A DNA stretch of 64,000 bases from Candidatus Dojkabacteria bacterium. Lineage in GTDB: Bacteria > Patescibacteriota > Dojkabacteria > SC72 > JAHDCA01. Where the stretch lies: the NCBI GenBank assembly GCA_030583845.1, contig CP129478.1, forward strand, positions 279,175 to 343,174, in the 5' to 3' direction. Each line of letters begins with the position of its first letter. The first letter of the stretch is position 1. Under the pieces are notes generated by a model, which had not been told where the DNA came from, ran no database searches, and saw only the letters and a list, made by a program, of their open reading frames with translations. Below, piece by piece: positions 3,761 to 54,982 of the stretch. Position numbers and translations under genes: made by a program.

Positions 3761-3977
3761 GCCGCTAACCTATAAGCCGTCAAGAGAAAGGCGGATTTAG
3801 CTTGGCGGTACAGTCTTTGCAAATTTAATGAAAATCACGGTGAAATAGCTATTGAGGTGAGTATCGAGCTACTTTACGGATATTTAGCCATCTAACATAC
3901 ACAGGGCCGCGGGCTATACTTGCTCATTAATGATGCGTAGCGAGCCGTGAAATGCTTCGCATTATAGGTTAGCGGCC
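3761..3977. repeat. REP-like element: inverted arms GCCGCTAACCTATAA (3761-3776) and TTATAGGTTAGCGGC (3962-3977) flanking about 185 bp
   Basis: Seen directly. Arms share the CCGCTAAC(Y)TATAG core of an 8-copy family. It lies in the divergent cysS/ybaB intergenic region. Confidence 0.7.
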
Positions 3978-4046
3978 TAGTTAATTGCTAGTTAAGCCAT
4001 ACCAGTGATACAATCAGCAAGTTTCTAATTTAATGAAATTTACAAA

Positions 4047-4352: not shown

Positions 4353-4392
4353 CCCTGCTCTAGAGCCACAACTAAATTAGCACACAATCATT

Positions 4393-5016
4393 GTGTCCTA
4401 TCTTCCGAAATCAGTACAAAAGGTGATTGAAGAGTTTGAGCGCCTACCAGGTGTAGGTGCCAAGTCTGCCGCACGGATGGCCTACCACTACATCCGATCA
4501 AGCAACCAAGACGCCGTACGGCTGGCAGATGCATTGAAAGAGATGGATGAGAAGGTGGTTAATTGCTCAAAGTGCTACAACGTGGCGGAGAAAGAGGTGT
4601 GCGACATCTGCTCAAATAGCCTAAGAGAGCAGAATAAGCTTTGCATTGTTGAGGAGCCGCTAGATGTGGTCGCCTTTGAAAGCTCAGCCATATTTAACGG
4701 CCTATATTTCGTAATTGGTGGTGTAATCTCCCCGGCTGACGGTATTGGACCAGACGAGCTACGCTTCAAAGAGCTACAGCAGCGCGTCAATCAGCTAGTC
4801 AGTGAAAACGAGAGTATCGAGATCATCGTGGCTACGAACCCAAGCCTTGAGGGCGAAGCAACGGCAAACCATATACAAGAGGTACTGCAGAAGCTTATCT
4901 CTGAGGAGAAGGTGAAGATTACCAGACTTGCGACTGGGCTTCCTACCGGTGCTGACTTGGAGTATGCGGATAGGTTAACACTCAAGAGAGCCCTCGAGGG
5001 CAGGAGAAACATGTAG
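4393..5016 (+). CDS. recR: Recombination protein RecR
   Basis: HhH motif RLPGVGAKSAARMA, C4 zinc finger CSKCYN...CDIC, Toprim region. Likely GTG start. Confidence 0.9.
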   Translation: MSYLPKSVQKVIEEFERLPGVGAKSAARMAYHYIRSSNQDAVRLADALKEMDEKVVNCSKCYNVAEKEVCDICSNSLREQNKLCIVEEPLDVVAFESSAIFNGLYFVIGGVISPADGIGPDELRFKELQQRVNQLVSENESIEIIVATNPSLEGEATANHIQEVLQKLISEEKVKITRLATGLPTGADLEYADRLTLKRALEGRRNM

Positions 5017-5045
5017 CTTTGCTCACAGCGTAGCGCCCCACACCT

Positions 5046-25763: not shown

Positions 25764-25779
25764 ACTTCCCCCACTTCAG

Positions 25780-34895: not shown

Positions 34896-37800
34896 TTAAG
34901 CGGTAATTTGTGTTGGAGAAACCGATTGCGGACTATCAACTCTCCTCATCACTCCACTCTCAGTACTCCCGGTCCAATTATCCTCGGGAGGCTGCAGCTT
35001 GAAATTACCCGTTATCAGATCCAATTTCTTATTAATTGTGTACTTTACCTTCCCTTTGACCACTTTATGCTCACCGTTGAATTCCAATCTGTAAATCCCG
35101 GCGAATGAGACAATCCTATACCTTCCCTGCTCGTCAGTAATCACCTTCTGAACAGTTTTATCCGTCCCCTCTTCGATTAAAGTAATCTCCACACCGGCCA
35201 ACCTATTCCCTTTAACAGACCTTACCACACCATATGTATAGCCACTCTTAAGCATGCTCTGAATGATTAAAAGGCTTACAGGTATTAGATATAGCAGGAA
35301 GAATGTGAAGTTCAACCACGATGGAGAGGTAATAAGTACAAGGCCAGAGAGCACCATGCCTAGAACTAATAGTATCCTCAAAACAATAAATAGTGCATTC
35401 ACAAAACCGCTCTGTGCGACATTTACTAATACTGTGCTCCACCCGCTCTCAGCTCTATCTAGCGGCACTGCTCTATCTACCGAGTAATCCTTTTTGTGAC
35501 TAAATACTCCACCAAGGTAAAGGCTTTGATAGATCCCATCTGTAGAGGTCTTGATCGTCCTTGCAGGGAATCGGTAGCCAGTCTTAACTGCATCGATCCT
35601 ATATCTACCATTATCAAGGTATAGGTTATACACACCGTTATATCTGGTCACATCTGTATCAACCAACCTGCCAAAATCGTCGTAAACACGTACTATCACA
35701 TTATTTAGTGGGGCTTTGTCTTGAGCATCGTAGACGATACCGAACGACTCACGTTTGCGCGATTTCAAGAAGTTCAGCAGTGCGATCCAGAACCGCAAGG
35801 CCATGCCAGGGATCTCTGGTATGAAGAGTAATATGTAGCCCGCAGAAGCGGCTGTAGCCACTCCAGAAGTTACCAGATCGTACTCTCCCTCCTCCCACTC
35901 CTCCACCACCCGTCCAGTGGTCTCAACGATAGCTTCCCCAGCCCTACCTATTATCGACTGTGGTTGCGAGGTAGTCTGCCTTCCGCTACCATTATTTGCT
36001 GGTGCGGCTGGCTCCTCTCCGTCGTCTGGTTCTGCGCCTGGTACAGGCTCAGGTTCTGGTTCGGGTTCAGGATCCTGTTCTGGTTCAGGCGGTAAAGGTT
36101 CACTATTAGATATCAGCACCGTCTCTGAATAAACCTCCGAAAGGTTACCAACGGCGTCTCTAAGCCTCACATTTATTGTTACCGAGCCAGTTGCCGTAGT
36201 CCTGTATTCAAGATTTGCTTCGTACTGCTCCCACTCAGTTTCAATAAATTCTTCGCCTTCCGATATCATAATCTCGGCAACGCCAGAACCAGTATCGATC
36301 GCAGGTATCAAAATTACTATATCTCGAATATTACTACTGCCCGAATTGTCTGTAATAAATAGTTCGCCCACAGGAGGGATAGTGTCAACTCCGAAGGCAA
36401 CCTCTCCTTCGTTTGCAGTACTATAAACGACTGGGTAAAGGGTTGGATCATAGCCACCAACGCGCCAGTAGTAAGTAGAATCACCTAGAACTTGCCCTTC
36501 GTTACCTACAGCATATGTGCCGCCTGAAGGAGCCTGACCAACGGTGAAGGTATAACTACCTTGTGCTAGTGGTGCCGATGTGAAATCAACGACAGGGGTT
36601 GAGAAATCTTCGCTGTCATCAATCTGAATTCGATACTGGACTGTGTCCGTACTGTCCTCATCAGATATAGCAAATGCAAATACAGGGGCTGTATTAACGC
36701 TAAACTCTCCATCTATTACGGCACCCTCACCAAGATCGGTCGTCACCGGAATTCCGAAGTTCCAACCAACATTATTACCTAGGTTAGACCCAGTACCAAG
36801 TAGCTGAATAGCAGTCGGACTATTATTTACGCTATCGCTAACATCCACATACTGTATATTCCTTGAACCTTGAGGATCAATGTACCAAGGCTGACCTGGA
36901 GTTACAGAGACCAAATCAATATGATTGTTTTCTGTCCCCGCAATCGTAGTCATACCTTCTACTGTTATCACACTTCCTTCTAACACCTGGAAAGTAGCGA
37001 TGTTTGGCAATACCTCAATATTATTAAACTGATAGTTTCCTGTAAGGATCGTTGCACCACCGTCGAAGATCACTGTACCGTTATTATGATTAAAAATACC
37101 ACTATTGGTTAAGTCACCTGTGACAATAAGCTCATCAGATGGTGCGGTTAATGTACCGTTATAGTTAATGACCAATTGCGAAACCGTTGAAGTAGCAGGT
37201 AGCATCAGGTGACTCGAGACTTCAACCATAACATCACTATTAAAGCTCGTTGACCCACTTAGGTCAGTAACAGTTGTAGTTGAAACAGTAAGGTTGTCAA
37301 TGTTAAGAGAGTCAAATCCTGAGAAAAAGCCACCAGGATCCTGGGATAACTCAGCTAGGTAAAGTGTATCTCCTCCCTTCGTGAGCGTTCCCGTGCCAGT
37401 CAAACTGGCACCGCCCAGGTCATACCTGTACAGATTTATTGCTCCATTTGGAAGTACTGGATCGTTACCGACTGGAAGGCTACAGTTATTTGCGATTCCT
37501 AGAATAGAGTCTAGGCCGAATGTCACATGGTTAAACACGAAGTTTTCACAGTCTATTGGCTCATATGCGGTATTATCAAAGTGGATTGTTCCATTGTTAT
37601 GATCAAATGTTGTCGTGCCAGTCACCTGCATCTGGCCACGTAATGTAGTTGTGCCGGCGGAAGCGATCAGGTTTCCGCCAGAAAAGGTGAAGTCGCCAAA
37701 AGCGGAGTTCTCAGCAAGTGTGAGTGTGCCCGAACTAAAGGTCAGAGTTCCTGCAATGTCCAAACCGCTGTATCCAGATAGGTTTAATGTTGGACCTGAG

Positions 37801-40685
37801 ACTATCATATCCTCCAGTATATATAGACTCTCAAAGCCGCTAAGAACGCCTGTGCTATTTACAGTCAAATCACCCTGAATGGTCAGATCACCACTGCCCG
37901 AGAGAGTCCCCTGCAGTGATATTGCTGCTGTGACGACTGCATCGCCCCCGAGTGGTAATGAACAGCTAGACGCTACGGTTTTCGTACTCGTGTGATTAAA
38001 GCTCACGAGATTGAAAGTTGAATTATTACAATTAATACTGCCTGAGATTCCGTCAAAGGTAAGTACCCCTCCGTTATGATTAAATGATCCAGACCCACTT
38101 ATGGTGAAAGAACCGGAGACGGACATTGTATTTGAAGATGCTGTCATACTCCCACCACTGACTGATACCGAGGTAAGATCAGCAATCGGCGGCAAGGTTA
38201 TGCTTCCAGAGCTTACTGCAACAGTAGTCGCTGCTATACCTGTCATTATCGATGTGTTAAACGTCCCACCTGCGATGGTAATAGAGTTCATCGAACCATT
38301 ACTGAAACCGCTTACCACTCCACCACTATTCACTGTGAGTATCCCCATTGCTGTAAGCGTACCACTCCCACTCACATTACCGTTGACTGTCAAACCGCCG
38401 GAGTTGTTTACCCCAACGGTGGGATTATTTCCTAATGCAATAGTGCAGGTGGAGGATATAGTCTTAACCCCTGTATTGCTAAAAATTACCTGATTAAATG
38501 ACACACTGTTACAGTTGAGTGTTGCAGTGCTGCCATCAAATATTATCGTCCCACTATTGTGGTTGAATACAGCACTACCTGAGATGGTAAGCGCGCCTGC
38601 TAAGTTAAGTGTCGAGGATGAGGCTGTAAAGGTTCCGGCGCTCATGGAAAGAGTTCCATTTATATCTGCAACTGGGGGTAAAGTTACGCTACCTGAAGTC
38701 ATAAGCAGCTGACCTGAGAGGGTCAAACTACTTATCCCGCTGAGATTCAGAGTGGCACCAGATACAGTCAAGCCGCCACCTGAGATGCTAGAGAATCCAC
38801 TAAAACTAGCGCCACTGTTGAGAGTAAATAGTGAACCAGTAGGAAAGGTCAAAGTACCAGTTCCACTTAAGGTACCTGCCACCGTTAGCCCTCCGTTTCC
38901 GAGTAGAGTTGGGTTGTTCCCAAGTGGTATTGTGCAACTTGATGAAATAGTCTTACTGCCACTATTGTTAAACGTCACAAGGTTAAACAGTTTCCCTCCG
39001 CAGGTTACTGTCCCAGAGCTACCCGTAAAGCTTACTGTACCGTTATTGTGATTAAAGGTTGAGCTAGCGTTAAAGTTTATACCTCCAGTAATAGTCATAG
39101 TCCCAGATGGGGCGGTAACATTTGCAGCTGCATTTAGGTTCAGTGTACCGAAACTCGTCCCAGACGGTGGTAACACGATTGTCCCATTAACTATTAGCGA
39201 CGAGGTGGAAACAAACGATGTGTAGCTACTAAAATCGCCGTCTACAACAATTAACGATGCTATGGCAAGTCCACTAAAGCCACTGAAAACTGAACCTGCA
39301 GAAGCAGTCATACTCCCATTGTTTTTAGTAAAAGTTCCAGTGCCACTCAAAGTACCATACAACTGGATAAATCCAGATGCTGTGGTTGTGTAATTGTTTC
39401 CTACTGGTAGGGTACAATCACTGTTGAAAGTCCGGCTTGAGCTACTTGTGATTTGCACAGTGTTGAAGGTTACATTTCCACACGCAATCACAGCTGATGA
39501 CGACCCATCAAAAATTACAATTCCACTGTTGTTATTAAATGTTGCAGCGCTGTCGATTGTTACCGCATTGCCTAGGTTCGTATTACCGGACGAGGCAGTA
39601 AAAATTGCGCCACTATTAAGCGTAACCGTACTATTTGCATCAAAGTTGAAACTGTTCGCACTATATGTACCTGCGGACTGAGTATAGGCACCATTCATAA
39701 TCAGGGCTCGTCCCTGGGTTACTACTCCGCTATACCCAGCATTAATACTTACAGCCGTTATAGTACCACCAAAAGAGCTGTCTACCGTAGAATTTTTACT
39801 GCTTGTACCATCAAATATTACTGAGTCCGCTGAGGTAGGACACACATCGGTGCTCCAGTTAGTACACTCGCTCCAGTTCTCCGTAGCTCCACCACCATCC
39901 CAGGTGTAGGTAGCCGCTTTCGCCGGAGATCTAAAAAAATTAAAAAACTCATACGAGGATAACGATACTAGAACAACCTGCGCACAGAGGAAAAGAGTGA
40001 AGGTGAGGGTGACAGCTAACGCCGGATAGGCTCGAACTCTGGATAGCCTTAGATCGTCTTTGCGCTGAGGGACATTGAGATCCTTGTCGCCCCGGGAGAT
40101 CAGAAAGTAGAGTATCGAGAGAAAGAAGGTCGTTATTACCTGGTAGAAAATCCAATTCGCTCGCAGGATAGCTTTGGAGATAGGACCGTTACCCTTCTGC
40201 GCCATGTCAGCGGACTGATTTGAGAGGTGAGCATACCTGTATGCTTGCGAAGCAATATACTTAACAAATCGGAACCATCTCGAGCCATCCTCCACTCTGC
40301 CCTCTACTAGTGAAGAGATCTCATTGATAAGCCTGTCGAGAAAATCGGAGTCGTCTTTATCCAGTACTACATAATCGCTGGGAAGATCACCCAGTTTCTG
40401 ATTTGCCGCGGTCAGTACTACCACCTTTTTTGATGACTCGTTAAGTACCTTGTTGGTTCTCACATACTCTATTATTTCTAATCCACCATACTGAGGGAGT
40501 GTCGCATCGATTACTATGATCTCTGGATGGACTACATATAGATAGCCGAGACCGTCCATGCCGTTAGAGCATGTATAGATATTTAACTTCTCCTTGCGAA
40601 ATGAGGAGTAGAGCAGGTTTTTCAGTACAAGCCGTATGACAGAATCGTCTTCTATTAATACTATATTTACGGAATCCCTTCCCAT
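34896..40685 (-). CDS. Giant 1929-aa protein: N-terminal CheY-like receiver domain, TM segments, about 1300-aa tandem beta-helix-like repeat region, Pro/Glu linker, further TM segments and two PEGA/CarboxypepD_reg-like domains
   Basis: REC residues in place (IEDD, VIDATLP, VVLTAAN, LDKDD). TM candidates ILRANWIFYQVITTFFLSILYFLI and AYPALAVTLTFTLFLCAQVVLVSL. Six or more repeats of about 150 aa around FNHNNGT[VI]xFDG…C…N…C…LP[LV]GN. EPEPEPEPEP linker. Later TM helices and domains such as VRVYDDFGRLV…GVYNLYL…GRYRIDAVKTGYRF and GVEITLIEEGTDKTVQKVITDEQGRYRI. Confidence 0.6.
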   Translation of the reverse strand: MGRDSVNIVLIEDDSVIRLVLKNLLYSSFRKEKLNIYTCSNGMDGLGYLYVVHPEIIVIDATLPQYGGLEIIEYVRTNKVLNESSKKVVVLTAANQKLGDLPSDYVVLDKDDSDFLDRLINEISSLVEGRVEDGSRWFRFVKYIASQAYRYAHLSNQSADMAQKGNGPISKAILRANWIFYQVITTFFLSILYFLISRGDKDLNVPQRKDDLRLSRVRAYPALAVTLTFTLFLCAQVVLVSLSSYEFFNFFRSPAKAATYTWDGGGATENWSECTNWSTDVCPTSADSVIFDGTSSKNSTVDSSFGGTITAVSINAGYSGVVTQGRALIMNGAYTQSAGTYSANSFNFDANSTVTLNSGAIFTASSGNTNLGNAVTIDSAATFNNNSGIVIFDGSSSAVIACGNVTFNTVQITSSSSRTFNSDCTLPVGNNYTTTASGFIQLYGTLSGTGTFTKNNGSMTASAGSVFSGFSGLAIASLIVVDGDFSSYTSFVSTSSLIVNGTIVLPPSGTSFGTLNLNAAANVTAPSGTMTITGGINFNASSTFNHNNGTVSFTGSSGTVTCGGKLFNLVTFNNSGSKTISSSCTIPLGNNPTLLGNGGLTVAGTLSGTGTLTFPTGSLFTLNSGASFSGFSSISGGGLTVSGATLNLSGISSLTLSGQLLMTSGSVTLPPVADINGTLSMSAGTFTASSSTLNLAGALTISGSAVFNHNSGTIIFDGSTATLNCNSVSFNQVIFSNTGVKTISSTCTIALGNNPTVGVNNSGGLTVNGNVSGSGTLTAMGILTVNSGGVVSGFSNGSMNSITIAGGTFNTSIMTGIAATTVAVSSGSITLPPIADLTSVSVSGGSMTASSNTMSVSGSFTISGSGSFNHNGGVLTFDGISGSINCNNSTFNLVSFNHTSTKTVASSCSLPLGGDAVVTAAISLQGTLSGSGDLTIQGDLTVNSTGVLSGFESLYILEDMIVSGPTLNLSGYSGLDIAGTLTFSSGTLTLAENSAFGDFTFSGGNLIASAGTTTLRGQMQVTGTTTFDHNNGTIHFDNTAYEPIDCENFVFNHVTFGLDSILGIANNCSLPVGNDPVLPNGAINLYRYDLGGASLTGTGTLTKGGDTLYLAELSQDPGGFFSGFDSLNIDNLTVSTTTVTDLSGSTSFNSDVMVEVSSHLMLPATSTVSQLVINYNGTLTAPSDELIVTGDLTNSGIFNHNNGTVIFDGGATILTGNYQFNNIEVLPNIATFQVLEGSVITVEGMTTIAGTENNHIDLVSVTPGQPWYIDPQGSRNIQYVDVSDSVNNSPTAIQLLGTGSNLGNNVGWNFGIPVTTDLGEGAVIDGEFSVNTAPVFAFAISDEDSTDTVQYRIQIDDSEDFSTPVVDFTSAPLAQGSYTFTVGQAPSGGTYAVGNEGQVLGDSTYYWRVGGYDPTLYPVVYSTANEGEVAFGVDTIPPVGELFITDNSGSSNIRDIVILIPAIDTGSGVAEIMISEGEEFIETEWEQYEANLEYRTTATGSVTINVRLRDAVGNLSEVYSETVLISNSEPLPPEPEQDPEPEPEPEPVPGAEPDDGEEPAAPANNGSGRQTTSQPQSIIGRAGEAIVETTGRVVEEWEEGEYDLVTSGVATAASAGYILLFIPEIPGMALRFWIALLNFLKSRKRESFGIVYDAQDKAPLNNVIVRVYDDFGRLVDTDVTRYNGVYNLYLDNGRYRIDAVKTGYRFPARTIKTSTDGIYQSLYLGGVFSHKKDYSVDRAVPLDRAESGWSTVLVNVAQSGFVNALFIVLRILLVLGMVLSGLVLITSPSWLNFTFFLLYLIPVSLLIIQSMLKSGYTYGVVRSVKGNRLAGVEITLIEEGTDKTVQKVITDEQGRYRIVSFAGIYRLEFNGEHKVVKGKVKYTINKKLDLITGNFKLQPPEDNWTGSTESGVMRRVDSPQSVSPTQITA

Positions 40686-44283: not shown

Positions 44284-44685
44284 ATGGCAGACGAAGTAAA
44301 GAATCTTCCAGAGCTTTCAGAGAATGGCCAGAAAGTGCTCGAAATGGTTGAGAAAATGACCGTTCTTGAGCTTGCTGACCTCGTGAAGGTTATGGAGGAC
44401 AAATTCGGTGTAAGCGCAGCAGCTCCAGTAGCAGTTGCAGCAGCTCCAGCAGCAGCTGGTGAGGCAGCCGAGGAGAAGTCTATCTTCAATGTTGTCCTCA
44501 AGGATGCAGGTGCCAATAAGATTGAGGTTATCAAGGTTGTGAAAGATGCAACCGGCCAGGGTCTTATGGAGGCAAAGCAGCTTGTTGAGGCTGGTGGTAC
44601 CATCAAAGAGGGTGCACCAAAGGAAGAGGCTGAAGCTCTCAAAGCATCTCTGGAAGCAGCAGGTGCAACAGTTGAGCTTGCTTAA
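44284..44685 (+). CDS. rplL: 50S ribosomal protein L7/L12
   Basis: Ala-rich hinge and C-terminal domain …[27 protein letters not shown]…. Confidence 0.9.
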
Positions 44686-44699
44686 TAGCACAATACTAG

Positions 44700-44750
44700 A
44701 TCACCCCGCTAACCTATAAGTCGATGCGACTTATAGGTTAGCGGGGTGAT
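44700..44750. repeat. REP-like tight hairpin ATCACCCCGCTAACCTATAAGTCG atgc GACTTATAGGTTAGCGGGGTGAT after rplL
   Basis: Seen directly. Confidence 0.8.
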
Positions 44751-44826
44751 TCCTTAGTTGCAACCTCTACCCTTCTATCCTACAATGCATTTAGCTATTT
44801 ATTAATTTCCTTACACATAGCCGTAA

Positions 44827-45486
44827 ATGATGGATTTCACACAGTGGGTTACAGACATTGGAATGACAGAGCAGATGCTACTTATGCTGCTCTATATTCC
44901 TGTGATCGTCACTCTTATTAACTTCACCAGGTATGTGGTTGGATTTAAGACTTTGGGAATCTATGCCCCAATGGTTCTAGCATATGCCTATATCTTCACC
45001 GGGATACGTTTCGGTTTACTTATCACCGCTGCGGTAATCGCTGGAACTCTCATCACCTACTCTATCTTCAAGAAGGTGAGAATGCACTATATCTCCAGAA
45101 TCTCTGTCAACTATATATTGGTAACCTTTTTCATTATCTTCGTGATTGCTTTTAATGAAATTTCGCCATTCCCCATCACTACTGAGAACCATAACGTTGC
45201 TACAATTCCACCACTTGGTGTGATCTTGATCGTAACTCTTTCTGACTTCTTCATTAAACAGTATGTTAAGAAGGACCTGGGTAGCTCACTTAGAGCTGTG
45301 GCCGAGACTGTAGTCATCGGTATTGCTGGCTGGGCACTCCTAAGACTCCCATTTCTACAGGTATTTATCCTAGATAACCTATGGCTGCAGCCGATCCTCT
45401 TAGGGGTAAATATTGCACTTGGTAAATATACAGGGGTAAGATTTAAAGAGCTCTTCAGATTTCAACGGGTTATTAAAGACGAGTAA
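44827..45486 (+). CDS. Seven-TM integral membrane protein (no catalytic motif), first gene of the ATP-grasp locus
   Basis: 219 aa with about seven hydrophobic helices. Its position immediately upstream of a RimK-like ATP-grasp mirrors the 7TM partner of RLAN-type amidoligase systems (family assignment unverified). Confidence 0.5.
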   Translation: MMDFTQWVTDIGMTEQMLLMLLYIPVIVTLINFTRYVVGFKTLGIYAPMVLAYAYIFTGIRFGLLITAAVIAGTLITYSIFKKVRMHYISRISVNYILVTFFIIFVIAFNEISPFPITTENHNVATIPPLGVILIVTLSDFFIKQYVKKDLGSSLRAVAETVVIGIAGWALLRLPFLQVFILDNLWLQPILLGVNIALGKYTGVRFKELFRFQRVIKDE

Positions 45487-45536
45487 GCGTCTAAAGCATA
45501 TTTAACCTTTTCACTTAATCATTTCCATCTACAAGC

Positions 45537-46997
45537 ATGATAGCCACAGCCATTTTTGGGCAGAAAGAAAAAGAGGTGTTGGGGATCAACAGGCGCAACC
45601 AGAACTATATCCGTGCCTTCAATCCCCCATCAGCTCGTGGTAAGGCCGACAACAAGCTCACGACCAAGAAGATTCTCAATCAGGTTGGCATCAAGACACC
45701 TGAACTGTACAAAGTAATCCGCAGCAAGCAGCAGCTCAAATTCTTCGACTGGAACTCATTGCCCAAGAGCTACGTCATCAAGCCAAACCGCGGCTCTCAA
45801 GGAAGCGGCATCATAGTCTTCTACGGCCAGAAGAAGAATAGCCTCGAATGGATCCGACCGAGCGGCCAGACCATGGATCCACACGAGATCTCCCTGCACA
45901 TGGAGAAGATTCTGGACGGCCGTCTATCTATGGGTAACCGCAAAGATATTGTGATAATAGAGGATAGAATTCGAACCCATAGTGAATTGAAGCGCTACTC
46001 ATACAAGGGTGTTCCCGACATTCGCCTCATCGTCTTCAACAGAGTGCCTATCATGGCCATGGTACGCCTGCCCACCCGTCGCTCCGACGGTAAAGCCAAC
46101 CTACACGCTGGTGCGATCTGTGCTGGTATCGACATAGCATCAGGCGTCACTACAAATGCAATGCACCTTCGCAAGCAGCCGCTGATTGAGGACACATATG
46201 AAGACCTCGAATTTACCCTAGACCAGAATCCTCCCCTACCCCTGAGAGGTATCAAGATCCCATTTTGGGAAGAGATCCTACAGATAGCAGTAAAATGCCA
46301 AGAGGTTAGCGGCCTAGGCTATCTAGGCGTCGACATCGTAATCGACCAAGAGCATGGCCCAATGGTGCTTGAGCTGAACGCACGTCCCGGGCTAGGCATC
46401 CAGACAGCAAACAAGACAGGTCTACGGGCTCGATTAGAGCGAGTCGCTGGGCTGCAAATCAAGAGCAATAAGCATGGAATCCGCGTGGCTAAGAGCCTAT
46501 TCGGTGGTGAGGTCGAGGAAGAGATCGAGGTGATCAGCGGTAAGCGGGTAGTCAATCTTGTAGAGAAGGTAAATGTATACCACTCCGAGCATGCAGACAA
46601 GAAGGAGCTGGTGAGTGCAATGTTGGACACAGGAATTACTACATCTCGAATCGACGAGGGGCTCGCCTCTCGGCTTGGTTTCACAGACGCTCTGAAAAGC
46701 TTTTCCGAGCATAAACCACCCCGTGAGTTCGGTAGTTTCACAGAAGCCCAACAGTACATAGATGCCCATGAGGAAGAGATTACCTCACACCCACAGATTT
46801 TACGTCTCGCTAAGATATCAGAAGATGGCAAAATCAATGTAAAGCCTGTTATTAGCCTTGAAATCAAGGTCGCAGGTGAAAGACGCGCGATGGACTTTGT
46901 TGTAAGCACTCAAAGTGATATGCTCTATCCAGTGCTGATCGGTCGCGCAGAGCTGAAGAGCTACCTGATAGACGCCAGCAAGACCTTCACACGCTAA
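45537..46997 (+). CDS. RimK-like ATP-grasp amidoligase with N-terminal INRRN region and C-terminal retropepsin-like (PF05618-type) peptidase domain
   Basis: N-terminal GINRRNQNYI (the motif of alpha-L-glutamate-ligase-related proteins). Central ATP-grasp elements (…IIEDRI…RLIVFNRVPIMAMVRLP…DGKANLHAGA…LGVDIVID…VLELNARPG). C-terminal …MDFVVSTQSDMLYPVLIGRAELKSYLIDASKTF matches the LLGRraL…VDps signature of the ATP-dependent-zinc-protease/retropepsin-like family. Confidence 0.6.
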   Translation: MIATAIFGQKEKEVLGINRRNQNYIRAFNPPSARGKADNKLTTKKILNQVGIKTPELYKVIRSKQQLKFFDWNSLPKSYVIKPNRGSQGSGIIVFYGQKKNSLEWIRPSGQTMDPHEISLHMEKILDGRLSMGNRKDIVIIEDRIRTHSELKRYSYKGVPDIRLIVFNRVPIMAMVRLPTRRSDGKANLHAGAICAGIDIASGVTTNAMHLRKQPLIEDTYEDLEFTLDQNPPLPLRGIKIPFWEEILQIAVKCQEVSGLGYLGVDIVIDQEHGPMVLELNARPGLGIQTANKTGLRARLERVAGLQIKSNKHGIRVAKSLFGGEVEEEIEVISGKRVVNLVEKVNVYHSEHADKKELVSAMLDTGITTSRIDEGLASRLGFTDALKSFSEHKPPREFGSFTEAQQYIDAHEEEITSHPQILRLAKISEDGKINVKPVISLEIKVAGERRAMDFVVSTQSDMLYPVLIGRAELKSYLIDASKTFTR

Positions 46998-47016
46998 CCT
47001 AACTCTTCATTTGAAT

Positions 47017-48006
47017 ATGAGCCAGTACAATATGGATCCCAAATATCTAGAGCAAGGCGGCAATGTCCACCTCGCTTACTATCTAGAAGCAGCCGACCAG
47101 CTTGGCATCAAATATGATGTCATCATCCGCTCGCTCACAGCCCGCATGGAGAAAGATGGGAAGATCTGGTTTATGATGAACGCCTCGGTTCCTATTAACG
47201 GCGAGCCCAGCTCTACACTATCCCGCATCAAGAGCTATACATACAAAGTTTTCCAGCACGCTGGTATCCCAGTGGCTGAGCAGGCTGAGTTATTCAGTGA
47301 GCAAGATGCATTAGGATTCTTCAACCAGTATAAGAATATCGTCATAAAGCCTGTCCGCAATATCGGAGGCACCGGCATCACTATCCTGCCACAAAGCGAA
47401 GATGAGGTGCGTCAGGCATATGTCCTCGCCCGCGACAAGAATATGGCAAGCACAAAGGTCGAGGCTTTGGCCGAACGATTCGCTATCGGCTCTAATTATA
47501 GACTGTTAGTACTTGGTGATGAGGTAATTGGTGCCGTACATAGAAGGCCAGCCCATGTCACAGGTGATGGAGTCTCGACAGTTGCACAGCTGGTCGAAGC
47601 AAAAAATGCAGCACGCAAGGCAGAGCTGATGAAACCGATCAAGCTTGATGCCCAGAGCATGCTGAAGCTGAGGTCCAACGGATTTACCGAGGGCTATGTG
47701 CCTCAAGCGGGCGAAGAGGTCGAGCTGAGATTCAACTCGAATCTCTCAACTGGAGGCACGACTGAGGAGTGCATGTCGAGAATTCACCCTAGCTATCTGG
47801 ATCTAGCCATACGCGCTACTAAGGAGCTCGGCTTAAAACTAGGCGGCGTAGATCTGATTGCCGAGGATGTGACCACTCCTGGTGCTGCTGCAGTTATTAA
47901 CGAGATAAACACAAATCCAGGGCTAAGGGTGCATTATAAGGTGGATAAGGGCGAGGTTGTGCCAGTTGCTACGAAGATTCTCTCCTACATAGTGGCCAAT
48001 ATATAG
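47017..48006 (+). CDS. Cyanophycin-synthetase-like ATP-grasp domain protein (short, 329 aa)
   Basis: …IVIKPVRNIGGTGITIL…NYRLLVLGDEVIGAVHRRPAHVTGDGVSTVAQLVEAKN…STGGT…GVDLI… resembles the CphA central ATP-grasp block. Confidence 0.6.
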   Translation: MSQYNMDPKYLEQGGNVHLAYYLEAADQLGIKYDVIIRSLTARMEKDGKIWFMMNASVPINGEPSSTLSRIKSYTYKVFQHAGIPVAEQAELFSEQDALGFFNQYKNIVIKPVRNIGGTGITILPQSEDEVRQAYVLARDKNMASTKVEALAERFAIGSNYRLLVLGDEVIGAVHRRPAHVTGDGVSTVAQLVEAKNAARKAELMKPIKLDAQSMLKLRSNGFTEGYVPQAGEEVELRFNSNLSTGGTTEECMSRIHPSYLDLAIRATKELGLKLGGVDLIAEDVTTPGAAAVINEINTNPGLRVHYKVDKGEVVPVATKILSYIVANI

Positions 48007-48028: not shown

Positions 48029-48223
48029 TTAGCGTACCCAGAGCTGCCACACTACTACTGAGCTGAGGACTGCAATAACTGCAATTAGCATGAACACAAG
48101 GTATGTATTTGCCCTCATAAGCCTTCGTGATTTAGCGAGCTGGAGCTTCTGGTTTACAGTGCTACCACTCTTCTTTGCAGTTGTAATCTTCATCTCTTTT
48201 GCCATATCGCCAGTATACCACAA
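48029..48223 (-). CDS. Small hypothetical tail-anchored membrane protein (doubtful)
   Basis: 64-aa ORF with a C-terminal hydrophobic helix YLVFMLIAVIAVLSSVVVWQLW. It overlaps the glyQS promoter region. Confidence 0.2.
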   Translation of the reverse strand: MWYTGDMAKEMKITTAKKSGSTVNQKLQLAKSRRLMRANTYLVFMLIAVIAVLSSVVVWQLWVR

Positions 48224-48557: not shown

Positions 48558-48575
48558 ATGGAAAAAGAGAAAAGC

Positions 48576-49973
48576 ATGACAATAGAGACGCTTGCGGCAT
48601 TTGCAAAAAGGCGCGGCTTCGTATTTCAATCATCAGAGATCTATGGTGGATTTGCCGCTGTATACGACTACGCACATTACGGTGCGCTTATGCGCGAGAA
48701 TATCAAGCAGGCGTGGGTCAAAGAGATGATCCGCCGAGATGATGTGAAGCTTCTCGATTCAGCAGTATTTATGCACCCAACCACCTGGAAGGCCAGCGGA
48801 CATGTTGATTCATTCGCCGATCCTGAGATCGATTGCAAAAGCTGTAAGAACCGATTTAAAGCCGACCACCTCTTGGAGCCACTTGGATATACCGATGTCG
48901 ACCGCATGGAGATTTCAGAAGCAAACAAGATCGTAGAGCAGGTCAAAGCAGAAGGGAAATTGAAGTGTCCAGTATGCGGAGGCAAAGATCTCACAGATAT
49001 TAAGCGATTTGACCTGCTGGTTAAATCAAACTTAGGCTCCCCTACTTCAGAGCTTTCAGAAGAGAATGTTGTCTACCTACGAGGTGAGACCTGCCAAGGT
49101 ATCTATCTCAACTATAAGAATTACCTGCAGAATATGCGGGTGAAGGTTCCGTTTGGTATAGCTCAGGTTGGTAAAGCTTTCCGAAACGAGGTGGTCGCAC
49201 GACAGTACACTTTCCGTATGCGCGAATTTGAACAGTGCGAGATGCAATATTTCGTTCACCCAACTGACGAGCAGCCGAAATATGACTATTGGAAAAAGGA
49301 GCGAATGAGGTGGTGGAAAGAGGAGTTGGGCGTGCCTGCAGAGATGCTTAGATTTAAAGATCACGAAAAGCTTGCCCACTACGCGAAAGCAGCATGTGAT
49401 GTAGAGTACGACTTCAATGTACTTGGGAAATTTGCCGAGGTTGAGGGTATCCATCAGCGAGGTGATTGGGATCTCTCACAGCATCAGAAATTCTCAGGCG
49501 AGAATCTCGAGTATTTCGACCAGGATAAGAACGAAAAGTATATCCCACACATAGTAGAGACTTCGGGTGGACTCGACCGAATGTTCCTTGCCGTACTCGA
49601 TAGCGGCTATACAGAAGAGACGCTTGAAGATGGTAGCGAAAGAGTTGTGTTGAAGGTGAAGCCATCATTGGCACCAATAAAGGTGGCAGTATTCCCACTT
49701 ATCAAGAAGCCCGAGCTCACAAAATTGGCTAAAGATATCTATCAATACTTGCTTTCACAGCACATGGTCGAATATGATGAAACAGGATCAATCGGTAAGC
49801 GATATAGAAGACAGGATGAGATCGGTACACCTTTCTGCATCACTGTCGACTTCGAATCACTCGAGGACAACATGGTGACATTGCGCAACAGAGATACGCT
49901 AGAGCAGGAAAGGATCAAGATCGACGATATGCCACAGATTATTAACTCAAGGTTGTATCCGGAGAAGGCTTAA
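48576..49973 (+). CDS. glyQS: Glycyl-tRNA synthetase (single-chain alpha2 type)
   Basis: Class II motifs (…FRNE…, …GGLDR…) and N-terminal …FVFQSSEIYGG…. An alternative ATG lies at 48558. Confidence 0.9.
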   Translation: MTIETLAAFAKRRGFVFQSSEIYGGFAAVYDYAHYGALMRENIKQAWVKEMIRRDDVKLLDSAVFMHPTTWKASGHVDSFADPEIDCKSCKNRFKADHLLEPLGYTDVDRMEISEANKIVEQVKAEGKLKCPVCGGKDLTDIKRFDLLVKSNLGSPTSELSEENVVYLRGETCQGIYLNYKNYLQNMRVKVPFGIAQVGKAFRNEVVARQYTFRMREFEQCEMQYFVHPTDEQPKYDYWKKERMRWWKEELGVPAEMLRFKDHEKLAHYAKAACDVEYDFNVLGKFAEVEGIHQRGDWDLSQHQKFSGENLEYFDQDKNEKYIPHIVETSGGLDRMFLAVLDSGYTEETLEDGSERVVLKVKPSLAPIKVAVFPLIKKPELTKLAKDIYQYLLSQHMVEYDETGSIGKRYRRQDEIGTPFCITVDFESLEDNMVTLRNRDTLEQERIKIDDMPQIINSRLYPEKA

Positions 49974-50011
49974 AACCAGGGTAATTGTTAAATTTATTGC
50001 CAGCTGCCAAT

Positions 50012-51694
50012 ATGGAAATCAAAGTATTACAGGGTGTGAACTTTGAAGCACCGCACACGCTTATTAAGATCAGCCTAGATGGTGATGCTGGTAAAGTAAC
50101 TCCCCTACTCGACCTAGTTAAATCTTTCCACCATGTCTTGTTAAAGGAGTATGTGGTGGACGGCTCGACGGTGATATTGAATTCGAAGCTAACGCACTTG
50201 TGGAAGAGTTCAGCAGAGCATCTGAACAAACTATCTTTAGGCGAACTCTCACAAGAAGAGGTTGAAGAATACGTTATAGGATATACTATCAAGAATCAGA
50301 TCTACTCGATGTCGACACTGTTTATGCTGGAAGGCGCGATCGAGTTAGGTGAAGAAGTCACCCAGTCTCTCTTTAACGGCCCTGTATTCGATGACCCTTC
50401 TTATGAGAAGCCTGGTGGTGCATGGAATCGTGTCTATACGATCGGAGCCGGCTCGGCCGCAATGCTTACAAAATCAACTGGCTCTACTGGTGACCCGATC
50501 ATGGCTTTGAATATCCAGCGAGACAAGTGGGTAACCAACACATATGCCGATCGATTGAAGCTCCCTGTAGCCAAATGGGACTTACTTCGATCCGAAGAAG
50601 AGGTTGAGCGACTTTTTGAGGAGTATGAGAAGCCCGTGGTTATAAAACCGACAGGATTGGTAGGTGGCAATGGGGTCACCACCAATATTAATACTCTCGA
50701 GCAAGCTAAAAAGGCATACAATTATGCCTACGACATCGTCCATGAGAAAAACCGATCGGCGTGGCAGCAGAAGATTATGATCCAGCAGCAGGTCGCAGGT
50801 GAAGATTATCGACTACTGGTCGTTGGTGGAATCTTGGAGATTGCTACCAAGCGCATCCCAGCCTTTGTGACTGGCGATGGGAAATCCACTCTGGAGCAGT
50901 TGATCGAAGAGACAAACAGAGATCCACGCCGAGACATGCGCAACCCCGCCCATATCTTGAAGCCGATAGCTTTCGATGAGAAACTGGACGAGTATCTTGC
51001 TGAGCAGAATCTATCGCTCGACCATATCCCAGGTGAGGGTGAGAAGATCTTCGTGCGCAAGGTTGCAAGCATGAGCCAGGGTGGGATCACAGAAGATTTC
51101 ACAGATAAAGTACACCCACAGATTAAGTATCTTGCAGAATCAATGGCCAGCTCGATCCACGCACATGTGGTTGGCATCGACGTGATCTGCAAAGATATCT
51201 CGAAGCCTTTGACCGCAGACAACGGTAGCTTTATCGAGATGAACACAATGCCCGAAGCATACCTCAACACCTTCCCGGTGATCGGCAAGCAGTATCCCGA
51301 GACAGGTCAGGTAATCATTAAGCGACTGCTGGAGAAGATGAAGCCAGTAACCCGTATCGTGGCTATAGGGTTGGGATTACCAGAGCTGTTTGAGAAGTTG
51401 GAGAACGAGGGTGTGATTGTCGATGATGCAATTGTAGGTACAGTGTCGGGTGGTAGCATCTATATCGACAGCGAGATTATGCATGAGGATGTAGAGACCT
51501 GGGAGGCAGTAGAGGCACTCAAATTGAATGCCCTACCCTCGGTGCTAGTGCTGCACTATAAAGATGCTGACGAAGTTGAGGAAGTGGGACTTGGGTTTGA
51601 TAAGGTAGACTATCTAATCGCCAATGATGAGGTAAGTGAGAAGCTGAGTGGCGAGGGATATAAGAGTAAGGTGTTGAATTTCATTAAAATCTAA
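50012..51694 (+). CDS. Cyanophycin-synthetase-like ATP-grasp protein lacking the Mur-ligase half (561 aa), with about 120-aa unknown C-terminal region
   Basis: …VVIKPTGLVGGNGVTTNI…DYRLLVVGGILEIATKRIPAFVTGDGKSTLEQLIEETNRDPRR…SMSQGGITEDFTDKVHPQ…HVVGIDVICKDISKPL…FIEMNTMPEAY closely follows the CphA ATP-grasp block (…HRVLVV…AVAERVPAHVIG.GKSTI.ELIE.VN.DPRRG…). No MurE-like domain follows. Confidence 0.65.
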   Translation: MEIKVLQGVNFEAPHTLIKISLDGDAGKVTPLLDLVKSFHHVLLKEYVVDGSTVILNSKLTHLWKSSAEHLNKLSLGELSQEEVEEYVIGYTIKNQIYSMSTLFMLEGAIELGEEVTQSLFNGPVFDDPSYEKPGGAWNRVYTIGAGSAAMLTKSTGSTGDPIMALNIQRDKWVTNTYADRLKLPVAKWDLLRSEEEVERLFEEYEKPVVIKPTGLVGGNGVTTNINTLEQAKKAYNYAYDIVHEKNRSAWQQKIMIQQQVAGEDYRLLVVGGILEIATKRIPAFVTGDGKSTLEQLIEETNRDPRRDMRNPAHILKPIAFDEKLDEYLAEQNLSLDHIPGEGEKIFVRKVASMSQGGITEDFTDKVHPQIKYLAESMASSIHAHVVGIDVICKDISKPLTADNGSFIEMNTMPEAYLNTFPVIGKQYPETGQVIIKRLLEKMKPVTRIVAIGLGLPELFEKLENEGVIVDDAIVGTVSGGSIYIDSEIMHEDVETWEAVEALKLNALPSVLVLHYKDADEVEEVGLGFDKVDYLIANDEVSEKLSGEGYKSKVLNFIKI

Positions 51695-51701: not shown

Positions 51702-52661
51702 ATGCAGATGCGATACCTATACATAGAAAAGCCCCAAAGAGTCAAAATGTCCGGTGAATACCCGAAGCGTGCTATACGCATAATGGAGGAGCTTGAGAAG
51801 GCCGGTCTTCCTTATGATTTCGCATACAACGATCAGATATCAATTTCATTAAATAAAAGCGAGCTCCAGATTAAAGTTAATGGAAAAGATGTTAGAGAGT
51901 ACACACATATTATCTTTGGTGGTCACCACCTCCATAGCCAACGAGATTACGAGATAAAGAGACTGATCGTCGACGTTGTCGATGAGCATAACCAGGATAG
52001 CGGTAACTCAGAGCCCATAAGAGTTCAGAACTCTCGATTCATTAAACGAATGACATTCTACTCAAAGCTGCACATGGCAAAGATCTGCGCAGACTATGGC
52101 CTACCGTTCCTCGCAACATATTACGACCGCTCGGGTAAGTATCAGCAGTCCAACCTACCCTTCCCCTACCCTCTGATTGCAAAACATGTCGATGGTCGCA
52201 ATGATCTGGTGATGATCGACGGTGAGAAGAAAGTTAAAAAGAATGTATACAAGCTTGATAATGAGAACGGTTGGAAGCAGGACAGGCTGGCCACCAAGAG
52301 CCCAGCGCTCTTCTTCATACAGGAATTCGCCGACTCAGGAGAAGATTTCCGATATTTTGTATCCAAGGGCGAAGTGATAGGAGGCTGGAAGCGTGTCGCG
52401 GGCGACAGCTTTATGACCGTGAACCGCAAAGAGGGTGCCAGATATTTCTATGCCAACGAGCCAGACAAGAAGATTCGAGATATCTGTAAAGCCGCCGCGG
52501 ATGGCTGGGGAGTCGACTTTATGGCATTGGACTTCATGTATAAGGATGGTGAGCCTCACATTTTGGAGTTCAGCATGAACCCTGGCTTCGATGCCTATGA
52601 GAAGAAGTGCGAAGATGGCGAGCCAACAAATATCGCCGAGGCGATCGTTAAATCTTTTTAA
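51702..52661 (+). CDS. RimK-like ATP-grasp ligase (alpha-L-glutamate ligase family)
   Basis: …FFIQEFADSGEDFRYFVSKGEVIGGWKRV…MALDFMYKDGEPHILEFSMNPGF… parallels RimK (…DIRCFVVGD.VVAAMKR…EVNSSPGL). Confidence 0.6.
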   Translation: MQMRYLYIEKPQRVKMSGEYPKRAIRIMEELEKAGLPYDFAYNDQISISLNKSELQIKVNGKDVREYTHIIFGGHHLHSQRDYEIKRLIVDVVDEHNQDSGNSEPIRVQNSRFIKRMTFYSKLHMAKICADYGLPFLATYYDRSGKYQQSNLPFPYPLIAKHVDGRNDLVMIDGEKKVKKNVYKLDNENGWKQDRLATKSPALFFIQEFADSGEDFRYFVSKGEVIGGWKRVAGDSFMTVNRKEGARYFYANEPDKKIRDICKAAADGWGVDFMALDFMYKDGEPHILEFSMNPGFDAYEKKCEDGEPTNIAEAIVKSF

Positions 52662-52709: not shown

Positions 52710-53870
52710 TTATAGCCCTGCTACCTTGAAAGCATCATCAAACATCTTCTTGCTGTAAACAAGCTTTGGCTTAGGGATGAGCCCTTCATCCACCCACTTT
52801 ATCTGGCTAAATCCGATCTTGCCAGCATATAGCTTCTCATAGATTGTAGGATCCTTCTCTACTTTATTCCTGACCCTTCTAAAGCCTTTAAAGTAGTTAT
52901 AGTCCCGCGAGTATATACCCGGCATATTTGTATCCCCTAGCCCACGCTTGACTCGATATACGATGTGGAATGCCTCGATCCTAGGAGCAAAAGCCTGTGT
53001 AGCATTATAAAGCTCACGGAACGACATCTGCTCACCAACCCGGATAGCCCACACCTTGACTGCTCGGCCTACCAGATCTTTCTTCTTCAATACGCCAACC
53101 ATCTCCTCATTATATGTAGCTAATCCCTCCTCTGCCTCAAGATATGAAGGGAGGTTTGAATTTGCCAAGGCAGGCACTTTAGTCTGCTCTCCATTATAGG
53201 CCCTGGCTATATGCGTGAATTCATGCACAATTGTCTTCCGTAGATCTACGGCACTCTTCTCAATCTCTGGATCCATCAATATCTCCTTCTTCTTGATACC
53301 AACCTTCACCCCGTTCTTGTCGATGTTCTTTGACTTGCCTGCTTTCCAATCACTCAGTCCAAGCTCCTCAAGGACGATTGCCATAGTTTCTGCAATCTCT
53401 TCGTACCTCAGCTTTCTCTCAACTTTCTTACTCCCCTCATCCATCAGTTTGTAATTTTTCACCTTGCCCCGTAGCACTCTTGTGGCATTCCTAAAAAGGA
53501 TATCGCCAGGCATTCCAAATCTCTCCTGCGAGAGTCTTGTGAATCTAAAATTCTGGCCGACTGAATGTAGAAGCTCATTGAGCTGGTGCTTCGAATCGAT
53601 CAGTTCTAGGTAGAATTCTGAAATTCGAGGATCTACATCGGTGACAACTTTTACACTACTCAGCTTTGCTAAGATGTCGGCATTTTTATTTTTTACAACT
53701 GTATAAGTGAAAAGCGGGTTGTAGCTGCTGGACTCAAAGAATCTCTTGCGCTCTTCTTTTAGGTTGGTTGGGGTGAACACTAGGGATGTAGGGGCGCGGA
53801 ATTCTTGCAGCAGCTCTGTTAGTTCCTTGAGCTTAATTTCGCTCTTTCCTTTTTTGGCGAATATCGTCAT
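52710..53870 (-). CDS. DUF1704 / QEGLA-motif zincin-like protein
   Basis: HExxH IVHEFTHI and EEGLATY (QEGLA-like) motifs. The ORF's first 23 codons (to 53939) run through the 25-bp palindrome, so the ATG at 53870 is preferred. Confidence 0.5.
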   Translation of the reverse strand: MTIFAKKGKSEIKLKELTELLQEFRAPTSLVFTPTNLKEERKRFFESSSYNPLFTYTVVKNKNADILAKLSSVKVVTDVDPRISEFYLELIDSKHQLNELLHSVGQNFRFTRLSQERFGMPGDILFRNATRVLRGKVKNYKLMDEGSKKVERKLRYEEIAETMAIVLEELGLSDWKAGKSKNIDKNGVKVGIKKKEILMDPEIEKSAVDLRKTIVHEFTHIARAYNGEQTKVPALANSNLPSYLEAEEGLATYNEEMVGVLKKKDLVGRAVKVWAIRVGEQMSFRELYNATQAFAPRIEAFHIVYRVKRGLGDTNMPGIYSRDYNYFKGFRRVRNKVEKDPTIYEKLYAGKIGFSQIKWVDEGLIPKPKLVYSKKMFDDAFKVAGL

Positions 53871-53920
53871 ATGGTTACCATATTCAATCTTACCGCCGAT
53901 TCTAACAGAAATATTAGCCT

Positions 53921-53945
53921 TAACCAAGGGAAGTCGCACTTTGCA
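53921..53945. repeat. 25-bp palindrome copy 3 between the mreB-paralogue stop and the DUF1704 gene start
   Basis: Seen directly. Confidence 0.9.
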
Positions 53946-53971: not shown

Positions 53972-54982
53972 TTATTCTTTCGCGATGCTAGTCACGCCTG
54001 CTGCGAGCAGCTCCAAGGCTGCACCAGTACCCTTTGCCACACAGTACATCGGCTCATCAGCAACGTATGCAGGCACGCCGGTCGCCTTCGTGAATAGCTT
54101 GTCCAGATTCCGAAGCATTGCTGTACCCCCACTCATCGCCATGCCACGATCAATAATATCGGCCGATAGTTCAGGCGGTGTCTTTTCTAACACAGACTTG
54201 ATAGCCTGAATAATTTGCGCCAGCGGCACTCGCAAAGCCTCTGCGACCTCATTCGAATTTATCTCCATCGAGCGAGGCATTCCGCCTGCTGCATCACGAC
54301 CACGAATCTCCATCGATTGTGGATTCTCCACCTTCATCGCTGAGCCAATCTTAATCTTGATCATCTCGGCTGTTTGCTCACCAACCAGCAACCCATGTCG
54401 CTTACGCAGGTATGACACAATAGCATCATTAAGCGCATCTCCTGCGACACGCAAGGATGAGTACTCTACAATTCCACGGAGCGAGATCACGGCAATTTCA
54501 GAGGTACCACCACCCATATTTACGATCATGCTTCCGGTCGAGGTCTCAATTGGCAAGCCGGCGCCAATCGCTGCGAGCAACGGCTCGGGCACCAGATAGA
54601 TCTTACGGGCTCCAGCAGCCGTAGCCGCCTTGAGCACAGCACGCTTCTCTACAGAGGTGATTCCGGCAGGCACGCTAATCATCACATCCGGTTTGAAAAA
54701 TCGAGAAGGACCTCCAAGTGCTTTGTTGAAGAAATACTTAAGCAGAGCTTCGGTCACGCGTGAGTCTGCAATAACACCGCTTCGCATTGGCCTGCGAGCT
54801 ACGATGTCATCGGGAGTCTTGCCGATCATCTCCTTTGCCTCCATCCCTACGGCTAGGACCGACATATTGTTTACATCAAGGGCGACAACTGTGGGCTCTG
54901 TTAGCACCACACCCTTGCCCTCGAGAAATACTATTGAATTGGCTGTTCCTAGGTCGATGCCTAGCTTCTTTCCTCCTATCAT
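53972..54982 (-). CDS. MreB/Mbl-like actin homologue (second copy)
   Basis: LGIDLGTANSIVF…, NMGGGTSE… actin-fold motifs. About 50% identical by eye to the mreB at 30478..31527. Confidence 0.8.
   Translation of the reverse strand: MIGGKKLGIDLGTANSIVFLEGKGVVLTEPTVVALDVNNMSVLAVGMEAKEMIGKTPDDIVARRPMRSGVIADSRVTEALLKYFFNKALGGPSRFFKPDVMISVPAGITSVEKRAVLKAATAAGARKIYLVPEPLLAAIGAGLPIETSTGSMIVNMGGGTSEIAVISLRGIVEYSSLRVAGDALNDAIVSYLRKRHGLLVGEQTAEMIKIKIGSAMKVENPQSMEIRGRDAAGGMPRSMEINSNEVAEALRVPLAQIIQAIKSVLEKTPPELSADIIDRGMAMSGGTAMLRNLDKLFTKATGVPAYVADEPMYCVAKGTGAALELLAAGVTSIAKE

Follow-up and report, generated by a model that had tools for sequence, protein, structure and literature searches.

Two adjacent genes in a Dojkabacteria genome

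The stretch analysed here (the window; 64,000 nucleotides) belongs to the genome of a Candidatus Dojkabacteria bacterium (WS6), of the candidate phyla radiation (CPR). Two adjacent genes on its plus strand encode a predicted seven-transmembrane (7TM) protein of 219 residues (44827–45486) and a putatively bifunctional protein of 486 residues (45537–46997), in which an ATP-grasp ligase domain of the RloC type is followed by an acidic linker and a retropepsin-like aspartic peptidase domain of the RloA/RimB/PF05618 type. The first-pass annotation had placed both open reading frames (ORFs) at exactly these coordinates, and had set beside them an unfused three-gene system with the same kinds of parts. 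Such a system exists as RloABC of Pseudomonas aeruginosa and P. fluorescens, where the same three families occur as separate proteins (Lormand et al. 2025, PMC11957051); the label RLAN, which the annotation had used for it, led to no relevant paper in the searchable literature. A Dojkabacteria metagenome-assembled genome (MAG) at NCBI encodes, on a 1.04-Mb contig, a protein with 100% identity to the one of 486 residues.

The RloABC models used were NF052262-4, NF052267 and TIGR02291 of NCBIfam, and conservation was read from alignments of 44 close homologues, of 18 diverse fused proteins and of the fused C-terminal domains. TIGR02291, the RloC family, is the best NCBIfam match of the ligase domain (residues 10–305; 45564–46451), at 282 bits (E 4.5e-84); the equivalog cut-off is 314, so the protein is a member of the family and not a curated equivalog. 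Residues 19–303 match PF14397 (ATPgrasp_ST) at 232.5 bits (cut-off 31.4, E 7.4e-69). The INRRN motif by which the first pass had typed this RimK-like enzyme is present as LGINRRNQ (residues 14–21). K82, D266, E279 and N281 are invariant in both the close and the diverse homologues, and R283 is invariant in the close ones and R or H in the diverse ones. The RimK family model TIGR00768 scores 67.7 bits, under its cut-off of 143.4, and the S6 glutamate ligase model PRK10446 gives an E value of 3e-4 only. A full-length AlphaFold2 model of the protein has a predicted local distance difference test (pLDDT) score of 87.3 and a predicted template modelling (pTM) score of 0.70, and a Foldseek search with its N-terminal part finds the ATP-grasp folds of ArgX, LysX, RimK and Ddl nearest. 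No signal peptide or transmembrane (TM) segment was found in the 486 residues, and the protein is therefore predicted to be cytoplasmic. Judged from sequence and model together, its N-terminal domain is an RloC/RimK-type amino-acid ligase that looks active.

Direct hidden Markov model (HMM) matches to the C-terminal part are weak: PF05618 gives 21.4 bits (cut-off 27), RloA3 gives 33 bits against a cut-off of 210 (E 4.5e-8), and the Asp_protease_2 profile covers the DTG segment with a weak match. A single-sequence search against PDB is marginal (E 0.016); profile and fold searches were needed. The profile of the fused C-terminal domains links that of the window (162.5 bits) to RloA (E 1.8e-11) in two blocks, which flank a two-helix insert of about 50 residues (374–415) that sits just after the DTG strand and replaces the flap region of RloA. 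Modelled alone, the domain reaches a pLDDT of 91.5, and Foldseek ranks RloA (9g58), RloA2 (9g59) and Lpg0085 (2pma) first, then Ddi1 and retroviral proteases. Three fused relatives lie above the PF05618 threshold in their own right (P0218, 38.1 bits; P0266, 39.5; P0177, 34.7). The first pass had proposed a retropepsin-like C-terminal domain of 130 residues; the fold stands and the size does not, because the two-helix insert brings the domain to about 150 residues (336–484; 46542–46988).

The catalytic motif, which the first pass had left as either present or degenerate, is intact: SAMLDTGITTSRI is encoded at 46614–46652, with the codons of D364-T365-G366 at 46626–46634. D364 is invariant in the 18 diverse fused proteins, as are G469 and L473, and is kept in at least 90% of the 44 close homologues, where T365, Y464 and G469 are invariant. 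An h-h-G-R motif near the C terminus (L467-I468-G469-R470) is present and conserved in both alignments; the C-terminal string that the first pass had quoted, VLIGRAELKSYLIDASKTF, corresponds to residues 466–484. The domain thus has the appearance, in its residues and in its model, of an active retropepsin of the RloA/RimB type, and a homodimer of it would supply the two-aspartate active site. Taken together, the profile and fold matches of the two proteins have E values well outside the reach of chance.

It is scarcely credible that the domain is instead a non-catalytic module with a regulatory or substrate-holding role, or that the fusion is an artefact of assembly or gene calling. The window protein does fall below the PF05618 cut-off, and among the close homologues P0003 reads NTG and P0068 reads DTN at the catalytic motif, but the conservation of D364 in diverse fused proteins, and of DTG in more than 90% of the close ones, speaks against a non-catalytic module. 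Ligase and retropepsin moreover share a single ORF in all 88 loci that were analysed in six frames, from independent assemblies; the fusion is therefore not an assembly or frameshift artefact, a reading that is effectively refuted.

The 219-residue protein matches PF14402 (7TM_transglut) at 62.4 bits (cut-off 25, E 5.8e-17), which answers the reservation of the first pass that the ORF might belong to an unrelated transporter family. It aligns to positions 310–508 only of the 508-position RloB model (NF052267), the membrane half; the transglutaminase half (positions 1–309) has no match in it. Seven hydrophobic segments span the entire ORF in a hydropathy plot, leaving no room for a transglutaminase domain, and the first pass was right in seeing none. 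By family match and hydropathy, then, this is a seven-helix membrane partner, the membrane half of RloB without an extracellular domain. Its conserved residues (R35/Y36/G39/K41, R85-M86-H87-Y88, D140/F142/K144/Y146/K148 and R211-F212) cluster in basic loops that are predicted to be cytoplasmic. The topology is predicted with the N-terminus outside and the C-terminus inside because longer relatives of the protein bear an N-terminal signal peptide plus a PKD domain. Family HMMs found no second retropepsin or 7TM copy in the window.

Distribution of the fusion and its membrane partner

One genome per species was scanned with the full-length alignment of the 18 diverse fused proteins, the C-terminal domain by itself being too little conserved for a scan. 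Relatives of the fusion were found in at least 576 species-level genomes. The best 80 of these are all full-length fusions, aligned over residues 7–482 or so, and their hosts are Dojka-, Moran-, Pacei-, Falkow-, Kerfeld- and Woesebacteria and unclassified Patescibacteria. The top 120 database homologues are all 483–524 residues long, with query coverage of 97–100%. Some relatives come from MAGs with non-CPR labels (Bdellovibrionales, Gammaproteobacteria and Fimivivens). The proteins labelled Bdellovibrionales or Fimivivens are all 65–93% identical to proteins of Moranbacteria, Paceibacteria or Dojkabacteria, and the two labelled Gammaproteobacteria are about 46–47% identical to their nearest CPR-labelled neighbour. 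These labels are doubtful, so the best 80 give no evidence of the fusion outside the CPR. The fusion is thus the standard architecture across CPR bacteria and not a peculiarity of the window; no description of a CPR ligase–retropepsin fusion was found in the searchable literature.

A 7TM gene lies immediately upstream of the fusion in 87 of the 88 loci, the lone exception being cut by a contig end, and the two genes overlap by a few bases in many loci. Homologues of the window's 7TM protein are stand-alone proteins of 217–226 residues, on the same contigs as the homologues of the fused ligase. In Kerfeld-, Falkow- and related lineages the partner is longer (520–590 residues), with a signal peptide and two further domains, a PKD and an unassigned one of about 170 residues; such long partners were seen upstream of the fusion at eight loci. 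They too are without a transglutaminase domain, in whose place the PKD and the unassigned domain stand. Two loci have an extra stand-alone retropepsin-like ORF of about 160 residues beside the fused gene.

Fusion goes further in some relatives. ATPgrasp_ST, retropepsin and MATCAP domains are joined in P0218 (916 residues), in P0266 (961 residues) and at locus L079 (about positions 3480–5940), and such triple-fusion proteins range from 820 to 961 residues; one protein of 688 residues has a C-terminal YdjC-like carbohydrate deacetylase domain instead of MATCAP. A functional linkage of the parts is supported by the adjacency of the 7TM gene, the frequent overlap, the conservation across CPR lineages and these Rosetta-stone fusions.

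Comparison with Rlo and Rim systems

RloA of Pseudomonas is a secreted, dimeric protease that cleaves runs of at least eight Glu (PMC11957051). Deletion of rloB or rloC suppresses the defects of a triple mutant in RloA proteases, which implies that ligase and 7TM protein make what the protease removes (PMC11957051). The phenotypes of the system are envelope-related and osmotic, with a role in hypo-osmotic tolerance in which ligase and 7TM protein are epistatic to the protease (PMC11957051).

With RloABC the window shares the ligase subfamily (PF14397 and TIGR02291 being the best-scoring models), the 7TM family (PF14402; RloB positions 310–508), the peptidase fold with its DTG motif (RloA, RloA2 and Lpg0085 being the best structural and profile matches) and an arrangement of adjacent, co-oriented genes. 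The differences are several. The window peptidase is fused to the C terminus of the ligase, not separate and secreted, and is therefore expected in the cytoplasm, unlike RloA; it is without the signal peptide and the periplasmic disulfide pair of RloA, and its two-helix insert takes the place of the long RloA flap. The window 7TM protein is without the periplasmic inactive transglutaminase domain of RloB, the CPR host has no outer membrane, and the cluster adds three ATP-grasp ligases and a MATCAP/QEGLA peptidase. All window scores lie below the curated cut-offs for RloA, RloB and RloC. The RloA residues reported to bind polyglutamate, K46, R114 and R137 (PMC11957051), correspond to M362, K436 and Q459 in the window protein. 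The equivalents of K46 and R137 are not conserved in the window's Dojkabacteria clade, so that substrate specificity may differ there. Most fused proteins outside Dojkabacteria retain RloA-type motifs (AKIDTGA, RP and DRS..Y..IIGR), which include the equivalents of all three residues.

A ligase and a retropepsin in one polypeptide, as the first pass had described them, have a published precedent in RimBK (PMC11957791). RimK and RimB are the cytoplasmic analogue of the Rlo enzymes; RimB cuts tails of polyglutamate and also has a stimulating effect on RimK (Little et al. 2025, PMC11957791). The RimBK hybrid of Desulfotalea psychrophila (DP2392), with the order RimB(1–163)–RimK, is proteolytically active on polyglutamate tails, and hybrids also occur in Flavobacteriales and Rhodobacterales (PMC11957791). 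The window protein resembles RimBK and the RimK–RimB complex in joining an ATP-grasp ligase of the alpha-L-glutamate type to a retropepsin-like endopeptidase of the cytoplasm, be it within a single chain or in a tight complex. Domain order is reversed, however: RimB is N-terminal in RimBK, whereas the retropepsin is C-terminal in the window protein. The window ligase is of the RloC/ATPgrasp_ST branch and not of the RimK branch (TIGR00768), RimBK is without a 7TM partner, and the taxonomic ranges differ. The fusion event is probably independent of that in RimBK. The window protein thus combines Rlo-type parts with a Rim-type cytoplasmic topology, in a domain order opposite to that of RimBK, and RimBK may serve as a working model of how it operates.

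Between the two domains lies the conserved acidic linker LFGGEVEEEIEVISGK (residues 321–336; 46497–46544), which adjoins the first strand of the peptidase domain on its N-terminal side. The 44 close homologues all have F322, G323 and G324, and nearly all have E327, I330, E331 and S334; diverse fused proteins share the consensus LFGGExEEEIExIxGK. As an idea only, this Glu-rich segment might be a pseudo-substrate or a (self-)processing site. The fusion might then be a self-processing polyprotein as in Gag-Pol, a mere means of co-expression in which the retropepsin cuts the linker (GGEVEEEIE) and frees a ligase and a RimB/RloA-like peptidase. The conserved, acidic character of the linker, its position directly before the first protease strand and its lower model confidence (pLDDT 71–74) would agree with that, as would the cutting of internal Glu runs by RimB and RloA (PMC11957051, PMC11957791). 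The linker, however, never has the 5–8 consecutive Glu that these two enzymes need (PMC11957051, PMC11957791), the Desulfotalea RimBK was purified and was active as a hybrid (PMC11957791), and the triple fusions, in which MATCAP or YdjC is the third domain, point to multidomain enzymes that are stable. We regard self-processing as distinctly improbable.

The wider cluster and a proposed activity

The pair is part of a larger conserved cluster, beyond what the first pass had covered. The plus strand reads rpmG, nusG, rplK, rplA, rplJ, rplL (ending at 44685) and then, after 141 nt, the 7TM ORF; rplL (44284–44826 region) here leads into the ligase cluster and not into rpoB/rpoC. A promoter-like site in this intergenic region (TTGCAA-17-TACAAT, 44758–44786, plus strand) is plausibly placed, but in the region scanned such sites are no more frequent than in shuffled sequence, so it is weak evidence, by position only. 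The terminator scan, likewise not above chance, found none after rplL.

Downstream of the fusion on the same strand lie a second ATP-grasp ligase of 331 residues (47011–48006), glyS for glycyl-tRNA synthetase (48558–49973), a third, cyanophycin-synthetase-like ATP-grasp ligase of 569 residues (49985–51694) and a fourth, distantly RimK-like one of 319 residues (51702–52661), all three ligases being conserved members of the cluster. On the minus strand follow a metallopeptidase of the MATCAP/DUF1704/QEGLA type (409 residues; 52710–53939) and mreB (53972–54982). Counting the fusion itself, four ATP-grasp ligase genes and a MATCAP metallopeptidase gene thus fall within 9 kb of the pair; this block is kept throughout Dojkabacteria and in part in other CPR lineages. 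A 64-residue ORF with one TM segment (48029–48223, minus strand) lies between the second ligase and glyS. Elsewhere in the window, a 711-residue ORF (23643–25775, minus strand) has an acidic C-terminal tail, KKSEDEDGDDE. A 1929-residue ORF (34896–40685, minus strand) has an N-terminus that resembles, by eye, a response-regulator receiver segment, followed by TM segments, long Ser/Thr/Gly-rich repeats, an acidic PEPEPEPEP stretch and C-terminal TM helices; it appears to encode a giant surface protein, divergent from the ribosomal-protein operon.

In Dojkabacteria the order is constant: rplJ and rplL, 7TM gene, fusion, the 331-, 569- and 319-residue ligases, then MATCAP and mreB on the minus strand. 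The glyS gene is inserted among the ligase genes in the window's sublineage (the window and three further loci); in two other loci it is missing and the ligase genes are contiguous. The MATCAP-like gene adjoins mreB in the Dojkabacteria loci long enough to show both. Outside Dojkabacteria the neighbours of the 7TM–fusion pair vary. ATP-grasp genes accompany the pair in about 40 of the 88 loci, and MATCAP lies within 7 kb of it in 18 of them. None of the six cluster proteins matches PADLOC, which leaves an anti-phage defence system unsupported.

The ribosomal neighbourhood raises the possibility of glutamylation and de-glutamylation of a ribosomal protein, in the manner of RimK and RimB. In the window, as in about 20 Dojkabacteria loci, the cluster comes after rplKAJL; two Woesebacteria loci have rplL close by on the opposite strand, and RimK modifies S6 (PMC11957791). 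This synteny is absent in the other lineages, including Moranbacteria, Paceibacteria and Kerfeldbacteria, neither RplL nor RplJ has an acidic C-terminus, a target of this kind fits poorly with an obligate membrane partner, and the ligase scores far below the RimK model. A ribosomal target is accordingly very improbable.

The additional ligases bear on another alternative, a biosynthetic pathway. The four ATP-grasp enzymes would build a small peptide, or a cyanophycin-like or other poly-amino-acid polymer for the envelope or for osmoprotection; the 7TM protein would export or anchor it, and retropepsin and MATCAP would mature the product once and not act as antagonists of the ligases. The 331-residue ligase, whose gene comes straight after the fusion in every Dojkabacteria locus and in many others, matches PRK14016 (E 1e-58, positions 210–471) and resembles the cyanophycin-synthetase G-domain and the GshAB C-domain. 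Two of the three extra ligases are similar to builders of free peptides, namely the cyanophycin-synthetase G-domain, GshAB and N-acetylglutaminylglutamine synthetase. Reduced CPR genomes keep the cluster together as a block, the 7TM protein varies in its extracellular domain (none, PKD plus the unassigned domain, or inactive transglutaminase; PMC11957051), which suggests an outside interface, and Rlo phenotypes concern envelope and osmotic state. Many loci, however, hold only the 7TM and fusion genes within 7 kb, so the core pair can apparently do without further ligases in its vicinity. No transport activity has been demonstrated for the 7TM family, and RimB and RloA, both endopeptidases with polyglutamate tails as substrate, oppose the ligase (PMC11957051, PMC11957791). 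We consider such a pathway unlikely on this evidence, though a serious contender.

The metallopeptidase invites a further comparison. It matches PF08014 (93.2 bits) and TIGR02421 (E 1.2e-30) and keeps the HEFTH and EEGLA motifs. ATP-grasp and MATCAP-family (PF08014) enzymes, which are encoded together here and fused in some relatives, recall the TTL/TTLL ligases and the MATCAP detyrosinase of tubulin, and share with them a logic of writing and erasing at carboxyl termini; the comparison is a resemblance and no more. The cluster might then be a membrane-anchored, reversible machine for C-terminal peptide tagging or for poly-acidic chains, which would write and erase an acidic tail on an envelope or cytoskeletal protein or on an exported peptide. 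It would be the prokaryotic equivalent of these ‘tubulin-code’ enzymes and perhaps their evolutionary origin. The TTL profile match is marginal, however (E 5e-4, 19.7 bits, below the cut-off), and nothing points to a cytoskeletal target; the MreB proteins lack acidic C-termini, so MreB has no support as a target. The proposal is in our view rather doubtful.

We favour, as probable on balance, a reading of the two ORFs as the core of an Rlo-like module of CPR type, in which a membrane-associated, ATP-dependent synthesis of an acidic chain is trimmed by a built-in peptidase. By analogy with the characterised Rim and Rlo systems, the ligase would use ATP to extend the carboxyl terminus of a free peptide or a protein tail processively with amino acids, most likely L-glutamate in alpha linkage. 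Two C-terminal domains would pair to form a two-aspartate active site, which would cut the growing acidic chain endoproteolytically and so set its length or release the product; the peptidase domain may also stimulate the ligase, as RimB does RimK. One polypeptide would in this way couple the addition and the removal of the modification, as the first pass had suggested. The conserved cytoplasmic loops of the 7TM protein may recruit the enzyme to the membrane, where they would either offer it the acceptor or hand its product on to the outside. The MATCAP/QEGLA peptidase and the other three ATP-grasp ligases would probably act on this product too, by attaching and taking off other residues.

Several observations weigh against this Rlo-like module. 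In the Dojkabacteria clade two of the three RloA polyglutamate contacts are changed (K46 to M362 and R137 to Q459), a helical hairpin replaces the RloA flap region, and the window protein stays under the curated cut-offs of PF05618, TIGR02291 and every RloA model. RimBK, the only hybrid tested, gave no glutamylation of RpsF (PMC11957791). A search of the 7TM tails, RplL, RplJ, MreB and the cluster proteins for an acceptor that ends in an acidic C-terminus gave no candidate: the 7TM C-terminal tails, not being consistently acidic, were rejected, and the other candidates are unsupported.

The Rlo system was described only in 2025. The CPR version, conserved in hundreds of reduced genomes, is a stripped-down Rlo, without transglutaminase domain and without periplasm, with ligase and peptidase in one chain predicted to be cytoplasmic and hence in one compartment, and with the 7TM domain and the ligase as the invariant core. 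It is a second, apparently independent ligase–retropepsin fusion besides RimBK, and its gene fusions link an Rlo-type system with other ATP-grasp ligases and with metallopeptidases of the MATCAP/QEGLA type. As a simpler, two-protein system it may serve to work out the chemistry of Rlo-type modules. Should the doubtful likeness to the tubulin-code enzymes nevertheless hold, the machinery would have an important part in the envelope and osmotic homeostasis of ultra-small bacteria.

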